20,000 nucleotides of DNA, taken from assembly GCA_029210695.1 (NCBI GenBank), contig JARGFH010000013.1, forward strand, positions 44,213 to 64,212. The letters are read 5' to 3'. Each line of letters opens with the position of its first letter. Within the stretch, counting starts at the first letter, position 1. This document shows, one piece after another, positions 4,933-20,000 of the stretch. Position numbers and translations under genes: made by a program. The notes below the pieces were generated by a model. The model saw only the letters and a program-made list of their open reading frames with translations. It was not told the DNA's origin and ran no database searches. The DNA is from Acidimicrobiia bacterium. GTDB lineage: Bacteria > Actinomycetota > Acidimicrobiia > Spongiisociales > JAHEDJ01.

Positions 4933-5517
4933 TTAGCCCGGGCTGGATGTAGCCAGCGCACGTCGAATATCGATTGCGTACAAACCACCCACCCAGTAGT
5001 ACAGGATCAGTCCGACGATGCCGGCGCCCCAGGCCAGAGGTTCGAATAGGCCGGGTAGAACATCTCCGGCTGCTACGTAGAACGCAGGGATGGCACCGTA
5101 CAGAAGGAATGTGGCCAGTTTTCCGAGATACCGGACCTCGAGTTTGGTCCTGGTCCGGAGGGCCAGCACCAATGCACCGACCGCGATAACGGATTCCCGG
5201 ATAATCAGCAATGCCGCGAACGACGAAGGTAGAACCCCTGTAGCCCACCCTGCAATCACGGCGGTCGCTACGGCGATCCGATCGGCGAGGGGATCGAGAA
5301 ACTTCCCTAGCTCGCTCACCTGGCTCAGCCGTCTGGCCAGATAGCCATCGATCCAATCGGTCCAGCCGATCGCCAGGAGGAGCCAACCGGCTGCAGCCGG
5401 GTTGTCTCGCCCGATGAGCAGCCACAGGAAAACCGGGATCATCAACAGCCTGATGATCGACACCACGTTCGGTATCGTCAGCAGGTTCCTGTGCCGGCCG
5501 TCGGCCCGGTCGTCCAG
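4933..5517 (-). CDS. CDP-alcohol phosphatidyltransferase (PgsA2-like)
   Basis: LTIPNVVSIIRL; signature TDWIDGYLARR...SELGKFLDPLAD; GKLAT; multiple TM helices. The start is uncertain; the best candidate is CTG at 5517 behind AGGAG. Confidence 0.88.
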   Translation of the reverse strand: MDDRADGRHRNLLTIPNVVSIIRLLMIPVFLWLLIGRDNPAAAGWLLLAIGWTDWIDGYLARRLSQVSELGKFLDPLADRIAVATAVIAGWATGVLPSSFAALLIIRESVIAVGALVLALRTRTKLEVRYLGKLATFLLYGAIPAFYVAAGDVLPGLFEPLAWGAGIVGLILYYWVGGLYAIDIRRALATSSPG

Positions 5518-10017: not shown

Positions 10018-12015
10018 CTACTTCTGAACGATGCTGGTGAACCCATTCCCAAACTGCAGACCGGAAAGGGTCTGGATGAACGGGTATTTCAGGTCGCTGC
10101 TGAAGAACTCCGTGATCGGCGTATCGAAGAGCACGATATACGGGAGTTCGTCGGCAAGGATTGCCTCAGCCTCCCACATCTTCGTGTACGCATCTTCGAT
10201 AGTTTCTGCCGCCAGGATGGCGTCGGAAGCAGCATCGAACTCGGCATTGACGAAGCCGGTCGAGTTGTTTCCGTCGTTGTCCTCGGCGAGATAACGGCTG
10301 TGCCAGAACGACTCGTGGAACGTCGGCAAGGCCGGGTTCCCGAGGCTCCAGCCCAGGATGTACATGTCGAACGTGATCTCCTCACCAACGCCCGGCCAGA
10401 TCTTCGCCACGATTGTGTTGAAGTCGGTGGGGTTGGCCCTGGCAGGCACACCGAGTTGCTCGAGCCAGCCCTCGATCCACAGCGAAGCCGTGGCGCGGAG
10501 CGGATCGTAGCTTGCCGGGGGTGCGAGGATTTCCTGCTCAGGAACCTTCACGCCGGCCGGATCGATGAGGCCCGTACCCGGGATGATCTCCCCTTGGTCG
10601 GCATCGAACGTGGGCTCAACCTCCCACGAGAATCCGTCGGCCTTCAGGAGTTCCATCGCAGCGTTGAGACGCTCCTCGGAGGAAAGGCCCACATACTTGG
10701 CCGTCACCTCGTCGGCGACCTCCGTGTTGAACCACAGGGTGTTGCCCTCAGGAACCATCACGTACATCGGGAACGCCACACCCTGCAGAACGTTCTGCGT
10801 GAGGAATTCCTTGTCGATCATGTAGGCGACGGCTTGACGGTAGCTCTTGTAAGAACCAGGAGACTTCCGCAAGTTGAAGGCGAGGTACCGCATACCGTTG
10901 GTCGGGTTGACCGCGACCGACAGGTTTCCGGCCTCGAGACCCTGACCACGCAGACCCGGCGAAACGCCGAGCGGGTTGATCCAGTAGTCGATTTCACCGT
11001 TGATCAGCGCCAGCATGGCGGCAGACTGGTCGGTGTACACCGAGTACGTGACCTGTGTCGCATACGGTCCGTCCGAGTAGGACGTCACAATGTTGCCGGT
11101 ACCTTCTCCGTAGAACTTCTCGCCGTCGATCTCGATCGTTCCGTCGTCATAGACGGTGATCTGCTGACCCTTGAACGAGTAGTCCGGGTTCGCTGCGTTG
11201 ACGACGAAGGCGCCCTCTTCCCAGCTGTCGAACATGACACCACCGATGGATGGGTCACCGGAGCCGTCTGCCCCGTAGATCACCGCGGCGGGATCCTCGG
11301 TGCCGAGTGCTTCGGTAACAACATCGCTCCAGAAGGCCATCGACATCACAGTGTTGACGCCGACGTTGTGCGGCCAGGTACCGAGACCGGGCTTCGTGTC
11401 GAACGTCAGCTTGATCGTGTAGTCGTCGAGTGCCTCGAGCGCGGTCAGACGCGGCGAGGATTCCTCGCTATATGGGTAGGCCGACAGCCACGTGCCACCC
11501 AATGCGGCGTCACGCGCGGTTTCGTACGTGAAGACGACATCGGCTGCTGTGAACTCGTTGCCATCGGACCACATGACACCTTGCTGGAGGGGTTGCGTGA
11601 CCGTCCAGAGATCGCCTTCGGCGACCGGCTCGACCGGCAGTCCTTCTGCAAGGGCTGGTACGACCGCCAGCGACGGCAAGTCGATCGCGAACAAACCGTT
11701 CTTTGCAGGACCGAGGACGTAGGCGTTGTAGACCGTAGAGTCTCCGCCGCCGTAGTACGTCCAGTAGTTGGTCGTCGTTAGGTCAGACGTCATACCGAGG
11801 CGATATGTGAACGCTTCGCCCGTCGGCGGGGTCGTTGTTTCGGTCGGGGTTGTCGCGGCTGTTGTATCCGTAGACCCCGTGCCATCAACCGTCGTATCGG
11901 TTGTTCCGGCACTGGTGGTCTCGGTGGTGTCGCTTCCGCAGGCGGCCGCGATCATCGCAAAAATTGCGAGGATTGCGATCAAACGCCAGAGGCGACTATT
12001 CGATGAGTTACTCAC
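10018..12015 (-). CDS. oppA: Family-5 solute-binding lipoprotein of peptide ABC transporter (OppA/DppA-like)
   Basis: Lipobox IAAA-C; Thr-rich linker; WSDGNEFTAADVVFT, YLAFNL and RQAVAYMID motifs; first gene of the BCDF operon; GGAG RBS. Confidence 0.9.
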   Translation of the reverse strand: MSNSSNSRLWRLIAILAIFAMIAAACGSDTTETTSAGTTDTTVDGTGSTDTTAATTPTETTTPPTGEAFTYRLGMTSDLTTTNYWTYYGGGDSTVYNAYVLGPAKNGLFAIDLPSLAVVPALAEGLPVEPVAEGDLWTVTQPLQQGVMWSDGNEFTAADVVFTYETARDAALGGTWLSAYPYSEESSPRLTALEALDDYTIKLTFDTKPGLGTWPHNVGVNTVMSMAFWSDVVTEALGTEDPAAVIYGADGSGDPSIGGVMFDSWEEGAFVVNAANPDYSFKGQQITVYDDGTIEIDGEKFYGEGTGNIVTSYSDGPYATQVTYSVYTDQSAAMLALINGEIDYWINPLGVSPGLRGQGLEAGNLSVAVNPTNGMRYLAFNLRKSPGSYKSYRQAVAYMIDKEFLTQNVLQGVAFPMYVMVPEGNTLWFNTEVADEVTAKYVGLSSEERLNAAMELLKADGFSWEVEPTFDADQGEIIPGTGLIDPAGVKVPEQEILAPPASYDPLRATASLWIEGWLEQLGVPARANPTDFNTIVAKIWPGVGEEITFDMYILGWSLGNPALPTFHESFWHSRYLAEDNDGNNSTGFVNAEFDAASDAILAAETIEDAYTKMWEAEAILADELPYIVLFDTPITEFFSSDLKYPFIQTLSGLQFGNGFTSIVQK

Positions 12016-17345: not shown

Positions 17346-18134
17346 ATGCACGACGGATTCCTGCAGTGGGACGAGTCGTGTTTGACCCCAGGAATGCTCC
17401 TCGCAGGCTTCCGGGGAAGGACGTCTCTGTCTGGCAGGCTGACACTCACGTATGCCCCTCAGAGCTCTCCAGAGGAGATCCAAGCCTCCACGAGATCACC
17501 TCTCAAGGTAACGTGTGGCGATGCGCGGGCGGTTGCAGTGGGGATTCTCTTGGGAGTCTTCTGCGGGATCGCAAACGGTTGGCCGGTCGCGTCGACCCTC
17601 GCCCAAATGGCGACACCGTGGATCGGGGTTGCCGCATTCGTTGCCTATCGAGCGGCAGGAAGCAGCAAGCAGGCGGCGATGCTGGGAGCGGTCGCGTTGC
17701 TGGCTGCCAATGTCGCCTACTTCGCGGTTGGAGTAGCCGCTCGGGGCTCTTCAGGTCTTCCCTTTCTGGGCGGGATCGGTTTCTTCGCATTGTGGACGAC
17801 CGTCGGATTGCTCATAGGGCCGGTAACCGGGGTATTTGGATGGCGGCTGGCCGAGCATCGCACGGCGTTCACTGCGGTCGTGACTGTGGCCACCGTCTTG
17901 ATGGCTGAGCCCTTGGCATTGTGGGTTCACGTCGACCACTTCGATTCCCACTTGGCGTGCCTCAGTGTTGCAGCCGCCGGCCTGGCGCTTCCGTTGATCT
18001 GGTTCCGTCGACAGTGGCGTCAGGCTGCGAAAGGGGTGGCCCTGGTGCTCGTCCTGGCTTACCCGGCGGCGGTGATTCTCGAGGCGGCCCTGATTGCACT
18101 CCGTCAGATCTCTGCCCCGATGAGACTCATTTGA
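17346..18134 (+). CDS. Multi-pass membrane protein (DUF6518-like); start uncertain
   Basis: About 7 hydrophobic helices. The pattern ATPWIGVAAF...AAMLGAVALL..VAYF...FALW...IGPVTG is recalled as DUF6518-like. The first ~55 codons look non-coding. Confidence 0.6.
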   Translation: MHDGFLQWDESCLTPGMLLAGFRGRTSLSGRLTLTYAPQSSPEEIQASTRSPLKVTCGDARAVAVGILLGVFCGIANGWPVASTLAQMATPWIGVAAFVAYRAAGSSKQAAMLGAVALLAANVAYFAVGVAARGSSGLPFLGGIGFFALWTTVGLLIGPVTGVFGWRLAEHRTAFTAVVTVATVLMAEPLALWVHVDHFDSHLACLSVAAAGLALPLIWFRRQWRQAAKGVALVLVLAYPAAVILEAALIALRQISAPMRLI

Positions 18135-18275
18135 GCCAACGCATATCGACGCCGATCGAATCATCACCGACTCCTCGAACCGGGAGTATGTCGTCGATCC
18201 CGGATATTGGGTTGGCACTTTCCGTGATGGCGGCCAACAGCGATGGTGAGGCCGCCGCCCCCGCCGAAAGGCTGC

Positions 18276-18297
18276 AGCCCCTGCAAATACAGGGACT
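18276..18297 (-). terminator. Hairpin just downstream of the tRNA 3' end
   Basis: Minus strand AGTCCCTG-tatttg-CAGGGGCT, 5 nt after the CCA. Confidence 0.45.
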
Positions 18298-18302
18298 TCC
18301 GG

Positions 18303-18347
18303 TGGTCGGACTGGGGAGGTTTGAACTCCCGACCTCTTGACCCCCAG
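18303..18347 (-). repeat. 3' half of tRNA-Pro(GGG), interpreted as the att site of an integrated element
   Basis: Minus strand CTGGGGG-TCAAG-AGGTC-GGGAG-TTCAAAC-CTCCC-CAGTCCG-ACCA gives the anticodon loop, 3' anticodon stem, T arm, 3' acceptor strand and CCA. Upstream sequence offers no D arm or 5' acceptor strand. Confidence 0.88.
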
Positions 18348-18455
18348 ACGGGATCAGGGGGTGTCGGCGACCTGGCGATTCGGCGTTTTCTGCCTTCTGA
18401 CCTGGGCTTTGACTGCTCATTGACTTTCATCGTTTTGCAGCGTTATTCATTCTCC

Positions 18456-18474
18456 CGCGGACTTTTCGCGGACT
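18456..18474 (+). repeat. Direct repeat CGCGGACT x2, putative tyrosine-integrase arm-type sites
   Basis: CGCGGACT-ttt-CGCGGACT with an 11-bp period, about 110 bp inside the att core; a partial CGGACT at 18494-18499. Confidence 0.6.
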
Positions 18475-18550
18475 CTTGACACTTGAGCGGTATCGGACTC
18501 CGACCGAATGGCGATTCCCGGTCTCTCGTATTCGTCATGTAGGCCTGGTA

Positions 18551-18576
18551 TCCTTACGTCGCCTGATTAGTAAGGA
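18551..18576 (+). promoter_or_regulatory. Inverted repeat overlapping the vapB RBS (putative operator)
   Basis: TCCTTAC-N12-GTAAGGA; the right arm overlaps the AAGGAG RBS. Confidence 0.55.
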
Positions 18577-18585
18577 GCTACCCGA

Positions 18586-18834
18586 GTGGATCTCGCAGCC
18601 AAAGTCACATCGAAGGGCCAGATCACCATCCCCAAAGAAGTCCGGGAAGCGCTCGGTATAACCGAAGGCGACCAGATCGTATTCAGGGTGGAACAGCACC
18701 GCGCCATGCTCGCGAAGACCCCCAACCTCCTGGACCTCGCCGGCGCAGTAGACGTACCGACTGCCAAACGAGGAGTGGCCTGGGACGAGGTGCGACGCAG
18801 CACCCGGCAGGCCCGCGCTGAGGCGCGTCAGTGA
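18586..18834 (+). CDS. vapB: AbrB/MazE/SpoVT-family antitoxin
   Basis: AKVTSKGQITIPKEVREALGITEGDQIVF; GTGA overlap with the PIN gene. Confidence 0.92.
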   Translation: MDLAAKVTSKGQITIPKEVREALGITEGDQIVFRVEQHRAMLAKTPNLLDLAGAVDVPTAKRGVAWDEVRRSTRQARAEARQ

Positions 18835-19223
18835 CGGCCTTCGTCGACACCAACGTCCTGATTAGACATCTGACCGGCGACCCTCCCGAGATGGCAGCAC
18901 GCGCCACCGCCTTCCTAGCGGGAGCGGACGAGTTGCTCCTCCCCGACCTCATCGTTGCTGAGGTCGTCTACGTGCTCGAGTCCTACTACGAGGTACCCAC
19001 CGACGAGGTAGCCCGGTTGGTGCGCTCCGTGATCGCGTTCCCTCCCATCCGGACAATGGATCCCGCTCTGCTGCTACGGTCGCTCGAGGTGTACGAGACC
19101 CATCGGATCGACTTCGCCGAGGCGTACCTCGTCGCATCAGCCGAGGCCGCCGGAATAACCGACATCATCTCCTTCGACCGCAGCATCGACCGCGTGACAA
19201 CCGCCAACCGGATCGAACCCTGA
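18831..19223 (+). CDS. vapC: PIN-domain toxin
   Basis: FVDTNVLIR, IVAEVVYVL, IDFAEAYL and ISFDR acidic PIN residues; 130 aa. Confidence 0.92.
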   Translation: MTAFVDTNVLIRHLTGDPPEMAARATAFLAGADELLLPDLIVAEVVYVLESYYEVPTDEVARLVRSVIAFPPIRTMDPALLLRSLEVYETHRIDFAEAYLVASAEAAGITDIISFDRSIDRVTTANRIEP

Positions 19224-19241
19224 CCGAGCGCCGAAGTGCCT

Positions 19242-19881
19242 GATAGGTCTGTAGGTACGTTGCGGGAGTTTGTTCCGTAGCGTTGCAGGGGTCCCGGCGG
19301 GTGTGGCTCTCGAGGTGCCTGCCACCCGTTGGGTTGGCTTTCGAACGAGCTGACCTGCCTGCCGGGATCTTTGCTGGCGGTGTGGCTCGAAACAGGCGTA
19401 GCACCCAATCCGTATCGGGAGTGCCCACCGTCAGGTCCACCGACCCCGAGACACGAGGAGGTGTGTGATGTCGGTGATTATTGGAGTGGACCCCCACAAA
19501 GGATCGCATGCGGCTGCGGCTGTGGATGCGGGTGAGGTAGCGGTGGCTGAAATCGAGGTGCGTGCCACTCGGAGCCAGACCAACGAGCTGCTGGGATGGG
19601 CAGAGCGGTTCCCTGCTCGGCGGTGGGCGATCGAGTCCGCCAACGGGCATGGCTATCTGCTGGCCCAACAGCTGATTGCCGCTGGGGAGCACGTGGTCGA
19701 TGTGCCCTCCACCCTGTCTGCCCGAGTCCGGGTACTGGACTCGACCCGGTCGCAGAAGAACGACCCGAATGACGCTCGGGCGGTGGCGATTGTGGCGTTG
19801 CGTCAACCCAACCTTCGGGTGGTGACTGTCGAGGATCATGTGGCGGTTCTGCGGATGTTGCCGAAGCGTCACAAGCAGCTA
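19242..19881 (+). mobile_element. IS110-family element, left part (interrupted by IS630)
   Basis: Long structured non-coding left end followed by a DEDD recombinase N-terminus. The left boundary is inferred just after a CT core at 19240-19241. Confidence 0.85.
19257..19434 (+). ncRNA. Putative IS110 bridge RNA
   Basis: Hand-folded: 5' hairpin (19257-19283), target-binding domain (19290-19369) and donor-binding domain (19374-19434). Loop segment GAGGTGCCT matches the flank GAAGTGCCT. Confidence 0.75.
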
Positions 19882-19896
19882 GTGGTCTGTCGCTGA
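19468..19896 (+). pseudogene. IS110 transposase/recombinase, N-terminal DEDD domain only
   Basis: IIGVDPHK, WAIES and KNDPNDA provide D-E-D-D; GAGGAGG RBS. The frame runs into foreign sequence after KRHKQL and stops; no C-terminal Tnp20 domain lies in the window. Confidence 0.88.
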
Positions 19897-20000
19897 AATG
19901 GCGAACCGGTGTAGTGTTGGGGAATGGTTGCTACTGCTGAAGCGTTGCGGATGTCGCCCGAGCAGCGCAGTGAACTTGAGTCGATGGCGAAGTCTCAGAC
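19882..20000 (+). mobile_element. IS630-family element, left end
   Basis: Begins at CTAG (TA at 19880-19881), exactly where IS110 similarity breaks; a new ORF follows at 19924. Confidence 0.72.
19924..20000 (+). CDS. IS630-family transposase N-terminus (partial, not in ORF track)
   Basis: MVATAEALRMSPEQRSELESMAKSQ resembles the L-x-L-S-x-E-x-R-x-E-L-E start of IS630 transposases. TAGTGT -10 box at 19912-19917, 6 nt upstream of the ATG. Confidence 0.68.
   Translation, partial: MVATAEALRMSPEQRSELESMAKSQ

Follow-up and report, generated by a model that had tools for sequence, protein, structure and literature searches.

The stretch analysed here, which we call the window, comprises 20,000 nucleotides of contig JARGFH010000013.1 from an Acidimicrobiia bacterium, and near its end, at positions 19242–19880 of the plus strand, it carries the left end and the first 139 recombinase codons of an element of the IS110 family of insertion sequences (IS). 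The features found there and immediately upstream are collected in Table 1. The fragment is a 639-bp 5' piece that corresponds to element positions 1–641 of approximately 1,435 in its close relatives (about 1.42–1.44 kb), and complete elements in related loci measure about 1.42–1.48 kb. Its non-coding left end is 223 nt long (19242–19464), and an earlier note on this DNA had proposed that it specifies a bridge RNA, the RNA that guides recombinases of this family, whose target guide could be read against the element's own insertion site. Homology to IS110 stops abruptly at 19880, past codon 139, and the serine domain and the right end are missing.

Table 1. Positions of the features in and next to the IS110-family fragment, numbered from the first letter of the window
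Feature	Positions	Strand	Basis
vapB-like antitoxin gene, directly upstream of the insertion site	18586–18834	+	Pfam MazE_antitoxin, E = 4.4e-13
PIN/VapC toxin gene, directly upstream of the insertion site	18831–19223	+	Pfam PIN, E = 1.3e-15
Left flank GAAGTGCCT, the predicted left target as read by the guide	19233–19241	+	8/9 identical to 19312–20
IS110-family element fragment	19242–19880	+	blastn with complete elements from 11 loci; homology of close relatives spans 19242–19880
5' stem-loop (19257–67 with 19273–83)	19257–19283	+	Helix 1: 11 pairs, 92.7% paired, 4 with changes on both sides
Predicted target-binding domain	19290–19369	+	Outer stem 19290–19302 with 19357–19369, closing stem 19305–07 with 19352–54, inner hairpin 19321–27 with 19331–38
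Predicted left target guide (LTG) GAGGTGCCT	19312–19320	+	Same sense as left flank; would pair with the bottom strand
Predicted right target guide (RTG) CGAACGAG	19342–19349	+	Antidiagonal complementarity with right-junction positions 1–8, 58 loci
Predicted donor-binding domain, stem around an internal loop	19374–19434	+	19374–86 with 19423–34; helix 4: 12 pairs, 97.5% paired, 8 with changes on both sides
Predicted left donor guide (LDG) AAACAGGC	19390–19397	+	Same 8 nt as at the right-end terminus of complete relatives
Predicted right donor guide (RDG) TATCGG	19413–19418	+	Complementary to CT + GATA at the left end; family consensus WATCAG
Ribosome-binding site GAGGAGG of the recombinase gene	19455–61	+	
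Recombinase gene, N-terminal DEDD (RuvC-like) domain only	19468–19880	+	PF01548, E = 7.6e-18
Unrelated DNA ending the IS110 homology, with the start of an open reading frame (ORF) at 19927 that leaves the window	19881–20000	+	No similarity elsewhere in the window or in any of the 80 loci

The recombinase reading frame opens at 19465 with GTG, the start used by the relatives being the ATG at 19468, and 139 residues are encoded. This fragment matches the NCBIfam model NF033542, "IS110 family RNA-guided transposase", with E = 4.4e-17 over model positions 1–133 of 343, and the residues D8, E56, D99 and D102 (P0002 numbering) are invariant across 17 aligned sequences, that of the window included. 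The C-terminal Tnp domain with its catalytic serine is absent from the window copy; PF02371 is found in most of the full-length relatives listed. With the 139 residues as query against longer proteins, 3,821 reached E ≤ 0.001 among 8,000 scored. The best 120 relatives show 73–88% identity, most are 340–341 residues long, and those with a source name are mostly IS110 family transposases from Acidimicrobiia, Actinomycetota or unclassified bacterial metagenome-assembled genomes. One full-length relative, with 88% identity to the window fragment, scores 177.9 bits against NF033542 and so exceeds its cut-off of 140.

Genome contigs were scanned with a profile made from an alignment of 16 relatives and the window fragment. 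The scan matched 605 stretches, 528 of them encoding a relative, and the best 80 of those 528 form the set of loci on which the comparisons below are based (individual loci are given by L numbers). About a dozen of the 80 encode proteins 78–100% identical to the reference protein, the others 54–60%, and the left-end DNA of the window has a homologue upstream of the gene in 66 of the 80. Within the 20-kb window itself neither further copies nor the missing 3' part of the element were found, the sole blastn matches being 19242–19880. Since only a 5' fragment is present, the window copy is not a working system; its truncation at 19880, together with a substitution in the right donor guide that is unique to it, marks it as a predicted inactive remnant. 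The earlier proposal of an actinobacterial bridge recombinase system thus holds for the family, in which an IS110-type bridge RNA is supported, and fails for the window copy.

We consider it highly probable, at roughly 0.9, that 19242–19464 forms the left end of an insertion sequence of the IS110 family (IS110 group) and encodes a bridge RNA of about 190 nt, a reading based on comparison of sequences. What carries it is a conserved fold, together with the way in which each of the four guides covaries with its DNA partner in about 60–70 copies. In the IS621 bridge RNA, loop 1 reads the target and loop 2 the donor; the 5' sides of the loops pair with the bottom strand over 8–9 nt and the 3' sides with the top strand over 4–7 nt (Durrant et al. 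2024, PMC11208160).

The minimum free energy (MFE) fold of 19242–19467 has three domains and an energy of −105.4 kcal/mol (z = −2.61), and 2 of 200 shuffled sequences fold as well. For the family, 67 distinct left ends were aligned with MAFFT, after removal of loci without a full left end and of L011, which has no gene start; four exact duplicates and the degenerate left end of L026 were also excluded. The RNAalifold consensus recovered both stems of domain 2, outer and inner, as well as that of domain 3, and these stems, with the 5' hairpin described in the earlier note, gave the structure that was tested, 42 pairs in four helices. In this structure 94.2% of cells across the 67 left ends are paired, compared with 35–46% when the partners are slid by 1–3 columns; compensatory change on both sides occurs in 27 of the 42 pairs, and none of 500 shuffles attains any of five measures. 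In the target-binding domain, helix 2 is 91.0% paired and has compensatory change in 10 pairs; for helix 3 the figures are 96.4% and 5 pairs. Every string that the earlier note had placed in this region (the hairpin, both stems, the cap at 19321–38 and the two 9-mers) is present at the coordinates given there, and its three-domain fold is both reproduced by the MFE calculation and conserved in the homologues. One of its elements did not survive: the GGCTC/GAGCT stem (19305–09 with 19347–51), said to follow the outer stem of domain 2, reaches only 74% pairing, with one of its five pairs disrupted in 35 and another in 36 of the 67 left ends, and it does no better than shuffles (21 of 500 for cells paired and 40 of 500 for covariation). 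The target loop is closed instead by GGC 19305–07 with GAC 19352–54, and the GAG of the proposed GAGCT strand falls within the right target guide.

The left target guide was compared with the flank by setting the 9 bases before each left end against the 9 bases aligned to 19312–20, in 72 copies (8 were skipped for lack of flank). The mean agreement of a guide with its own flank is 7.69 of 9, against 6.39 ± 0.10 when flanks are shuffled, a value that none of 10,000 shuffles attains. Seventeen copies match at 9/9 and 34 at 8/9, so that 51 of the 72 agree at 8/9 or better; 11 match at 7/9, 7 at 6/9 and 3 at 4 or fewer. The signal comes from positions −9 to −5 and −3. Further out, at −10 to −12, there is none, and the guide is therefore taken to be 9 nt long. 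Positions −6 and −5 are strict (67/72 and 69/72 match), and the dinucleotide that they form is shared by guide and flank as CC in 4 copies, CT in 7, GG in 8 and GT in 45, with 8 disagreements. Within the 20 kb of the window, on both strands, GARGTGCCT occurs only at the guide and the flank, shuffled sequences giving a mean of 0.23 matches and reaching two in 6 of 200 cases. In addition, the segment 19225–19240 corresponds to the left half of a repeat used as a target site in other genomes. That the guide at 19312–20 reads the element's own left flank, as the earlier note had claimed from the window alone, is therefore borne out by covariation in the family, the left flanks of other copies tracking their own guides. 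Two flanks show further peculiarities. In L004 (131–150) a 9/9 guide match, GACGTGCCT, is followed by an extra CT, and the junction dinucleotide looks duplicated; in L006, 60 nt upstream of the left end, there are two or three tandem 15-nt units CAGGAGGTGCCGGAC, each with the guide motif GAGGTGCC.

All four guides map within the 223-nt left end, and the three that had not been named before map where an IS621-type layout, as originally suggested, predicts them. When every column of the 3' strand of loop 1 was compared with the right junction, a single clean antidiagonal appeared, running from 19349 to 19342 against junction positions 1 to 8. The right junctions predicted from this guide agree with those observed in 58 loci at 5.81 of 8 positions, against 4.78 ± 0.11 for shuffles, none of 10,000 of which attains it. 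From its guide, the right junction of the window element would have been CTCGTTCG.

On the donor side, the 8-mer of each locus's own left donor guide was sought downstream of the gene in the 73 loci with sequence there; it was found exactly in 52, with one mismatch in 12 and not at all in 9, in several of which the contig appears to stop before the right end. Fewer than 1% of 450-nt stretches would be expected to contain a given 8-mer exactly. The matching 8-mer lies 1–3 nt past a conserved TTGAC in 58 of the 59 loci with a mapped left end (L053 has no TTGAC), and the variants AAACAGGC, AAAGAGGC, AAAGAGGA and AGAGAGGA track between RNA and right end. No pairing of this guide with the core is visible. 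The right end itself is about 180 nt long in complete relatives; in those of L001–L012 the first ~110 nt past the stop codon include a conserved GC-rich segment, GGGCCCGGGGGGCAC ... CCACCCCGGGCC, which could form a long-range stem. The right donor guide gives an antidiagonal from 19418 to 19413 against CT and left-end bases 1–4 in 70 loci, and it matches each of the left-end variants CTGATA, CTGATT, CTGCT, CTGGT, CTACT and CTAAT. In the window this guide pairs with CT+GATA except at G19417; the position is A in 70 of 70 other copies, and across 54 columns that are at least 95% conserved it is the only deviation of the window copy.

The closest described parallel is IS621 of E. coli (Durrant et al. 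2024, PMC11208160; Hiraizumi et al. 2024, PMC11208158), which likewise has its RNA in the left end, the order 5' stem-loop, target loop and donor loop, a 9-nt left target guide in the sense of the left flank and ending in CT, right target and right donor guides that are antisense to the top strand, a TTGACA close to the junction in its right end, and a recombinase of DEDD and Tnp (serine) domains. The present family differs in that the protein is distant, the full-length relative aligning with the IS621 transposase over the C-terminal domain only (E = 1e-10); the right target guide signal spans 8 positions instead of the 4–7 described, pairing of the left donor guide with the core is not visible, the junction dinucleotides are CT on one side and TT, AT or CT on the other with most empty sites lacking the T, and the right end is long (about 180 nt) and not short. 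The best match of the full-length relative among solved structures is the ISCro4 transposase (PDB 9t56, E = 8.1e-13), a member of the same family with low similarity, mainly over residues 185–335, in a comparison by protein alone. The targeting of intergenic repeats by IS110 elements has already been described for ISPpu10 of Pseudomonas putida, which inserts at REP sequences (bioRxiv 10.64898/2026.03.19.712850); there too one conserved intergenic repeat with many copies is used and pairing with the bridge RNA defines the site. The described REP target has a conserved stem-loop 5' of the left target, whereas the repeat of about 85 nt found here has no RNAalifold consensus fold, and the repeats here stand in one orientation with single ORFs between them. 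Elements of the IS1111 group share the recombinase family and site-specific insertion into repeats, integron attC sites being reported as targets of some of them. Their long non-coding end is the right end (PMC11208160), whereas the RNA here lies in the left end.

Several points count against reading the left end as a bridge RNA, or at least limit what the comparisons can bear. An Rfam scan of 18000–20000 at E ≤ 1 gave no match. The right end and right flank of the element lie outside the window, so that support for the right target guide and the left donor guide comes from relatives only; right ends were moreover located with each locus's own left donor guide, a procedure that leans toward agreement, and the shuffle tests leave the shared ancestry of the copies uncorrected. 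Three of the 72 left flanks fit poorly, namely those of L001 (4/9), of L026, whose left end is degenerate, and of L004 (3/9), where the low figure results from the extra CT after a perfect guide match. Position −7 is the loosest of the guide, with 32 of 72 copies matching. It is also where the window's own guide and flank differ, G against A, a difference that the earlier note had explained as an rG:dT wobble; since −7 is the least constrained position the wobble is not needed, and the commonest mismatch listed there, guide A against flank G, is not a wobble. To these are added the unequal junctions and T-less empty sites taken up below, which concern the register of the core.

A very different account would make the left end a leader that controls translation or stability of the recombinase, the motif in the flank being a fixed terminal or subterminal repeat or a DNA site read by protein. 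Similarities between left end and target in IS110 elements were understood in this way before 2024, and conservation in the target repeat extends past the stretch matched by the guide, as with GAGCGC at about −18 to −12; protein recognition could contribute. We nevertheless regard this account as very improbable. In L014/L016/L017, L033/L034 and L042/L043 the RNA regions are identical and the flanks different, so the 9-mer of the flank is not part of the element, which also answers the concern in the earlier note that it might be; the match ends exactly at 9 nt; and covariation is seen in the stems, with the guide strands remaining unpaired. Relative to their partners, the 3' strands are antisense and the 5' strands sense, which is the pattern of a bridge RNA and not that of a DNA repeat. 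RNA guidance has also been shown experimentally for this protein family (PMC11208160, PMC11208158).

Granted a bridge RNA, the exact register of its core is less secure. The right flanks of different loci have only 34–65 nt in common, which belong to the repeat of about 85 nt. A profile hidden Markov model (HMM) of this repeat, which starts at the CG after the junction and is hence blind to the preceding bases, was searched in the loci and in the window; it found further copies in the loci, 13 of them unoccupied, and none in the window. Twelve of the 13 unoccupied repeats read ..A.GTGC/CG.T.. (the stroke marks the junction), without the T, which the simple IS621 picture does not predict. The sole exception with an extra CT, in L011 at 4976–5052, reads GAAGTGCCT/CGTTCTCG. 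This may be a variant that occurs naturally and would make an ideal target, or else the footprint of an excision. About eight more CT-less unoccupied copies came from a second HMM that was seeded on CT-less repeats and is biased toward them. Counts of the patterns GTGCCG.T and GTGCCTCG.T, 180 against 4, are uninformative, the short pattern being common by chance. Outside the element, GTGCCTCG occurs in the window only at 11430–11437, in the context GTCGTCGAGTGCCTCGAGCG, the left part of which fits the guide poorly.

At the left junction of occupied sites, ..GTGC-CT/GAT.., CT is present in 69 of 72 copies (the exceptions are L023, L026 and L004); at the right junction, the last 8 nt of the element (the left donor, LD) are followed by NT and then CG.., NT being TT in 34 of 58 loci, AT in 20 and CT in 4. 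The junction dinucleotides thus differ between the ends of the element, and the occupied junctions together share one C only with the usual empty site. Because 12 of 13 unoccupied repeats lack the T, T19241 may belong to the element and not to the target, and the assignment of a CT core with the left end at 19242, made in the earlier note, is uncertain by one base: the CT at the left junction is as proposed, and most right junctions and most empty repeats do not conform. In either register a target-type core is found at the left junction and a donor-type core at the right, which fits top-strand cleavage 3' of the core as in IS621.

One way to accommodate these observations is to keep the same bridge RNA system and shift the register by one base, with CC (19239–40) as target core and TC as donor core, a possibility to which we give somewhat less than even odds. 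T19241 would then be the first base of the element, and the junction of the circle formed by right end and left end (RE-LE) would hold four nucleotides, N-T-C-T, between the 8-nt LD and GAT; the core of the target would be kept on the left and that of the donor on the right, as expected if only top strands are exchanged and replication resolves the rest. The unoccupied repeats found with the junction-blind HMM, and the additional ones from the HMM that leans toward them, then need no rare variants, the right junction is always NT+CG and the left nearly always ..C+CT, and the published cut of the IS621 top strand 3' of the core (PMC11208158) accords with such an exchange. The promoter geometry may point the same way. 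In 58 of 59 loci TTGAC stands 9–11 nt from the end of the LD, and the left end contains a −10-like hexamer. The spacer between them varies with the length of the junction: a 4-nt junction sets TTGACA 17 nt from GAKAMT/GATGAT in 41 of 58 scorable loci (59 examined), a 2-nt junction gives 15, and the assignment of the −10 is itself weak. There is also covariation between RNA position 19349 and N, the base that precedes the core in the donor (complementary in 30 of 59, with 18.9 expected), a signal resembling the published TBL-HSG handshake with donor position 7 (PMC11208158), and G19349 may be such a handshake position instead of a base of the right target guide; at 19350–52 no handshake signal with the last bases of the LD was found.

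The shifted register also has its costs. It requires C where IS621 and its relatives have a near-invariant T that is read by the protein (PMC11208158), it turns the left target guide into 6+2+1 instead of 7+2, and the unoccupied repeat of L011 is an ideal target in the IS621 style. A search of the 80 loci for an RE-LE circle junction or a tandem dimer found neither, with only two chance matches at ordinary right junctions. The other reading is the IS621-style register, with core CT and an element that would use rare CT-bearing variants of the repeat. A broader proposition, that this subfamily recombines non-identical cores (CC in the target, TC in the donor) through a 4-nt circle junction and uses the boundary repeats of cassette-like gene arrays as targets, we regard as rather unlikely. 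If true, each insertion would have the target core on its left and the donor core on its right, the footprint of a top-strand-only exchange completed by replication.

As to the nature of the target repeat, its RNAalifold consensus fold is empty, and it is therefore not called a hairpin element. Copies stand in one orientation, 0.4–1.9 kb apart, in L066 (1467–3221) and L008 (350–5790) and also in L006, L009 and L057; in L066 and L008 one or two substantial ORFs, on either strand, lie between neighbouring repeats, a layout that resembles a cassette array. Right ends of other IS110-like elements (TTGAC.. and then a junction) adjoin or lie near copies in L008, L037, L056, L051, L057 (at about 833) and L011 (at about 3548), and IS110-like elements seem to pile up side by side in the repeat arrays. 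We also considered that the flanks might be part of a longer mobile element shared between loci. This was rejected, given how short the sharing of right flanks is; long sharing of left flanks is confined to L008, L037 and L056 (1.2–1.45 kb), where another element lies upstream.

The rest of the window offers little that bears on the element. No sigma-70-like promoter was found by a scan of 18400–19600, which covers the integrated window copy. ARAGORN found no tRNA in the window; a segment of the minus strand at about 18285–18335 resembles by eye the 3' part of a tRNA and may be a fragment of the kind left at integration sites, which in view of the ARAGORN result stays an impression by eye. Beyond the fragment, the ORF that starts at 19927 begins MVATAEALRMSPEQRSELESMAKSQ and extends past the end of the window, and the 24 residues of it within 19881–20000 have no Pfam match. 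This start may resemble the N-terminus of an IS630-type transposase, in which case a second element would lie inside the first.

In the complete relatives, then, the bridge RNA would keep the recombinase bound to two DNAs simultaneously, with loop 1 binding the target and loop 2 the donor, that is, the joined ends of the excised element. The left donor guide would recognise the 8 nt that close the right end, and the right donor guide would pair with the bases that open the left end. The natural target would be a short repeat that recurs between genes, lying in the window directly after vapC. By analogy with IS621, the RNA would be made from a promoter rebuilt at the circle junction and would drive recombination.

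In summary, the kind of system is already well known, and it is met here in an uncultured lineage of the Acidimicrobiia type, whose DNA sequence by itself reveals the probable bridge RNA together with all four guides. The copies provide a natural series of about 70 pairs of guide and target with known tolerance of mismatches, loose at −7 and strict at −6 and −5. The only feature beyond the textbook is the asymmetry of the junctions together with the T-less empty sites. If it is true, this asymmetry bears on how strictly the cores of donor and target must match and on whether both strands are exchanged, and it would be relevant to the engineering of these recombinases.

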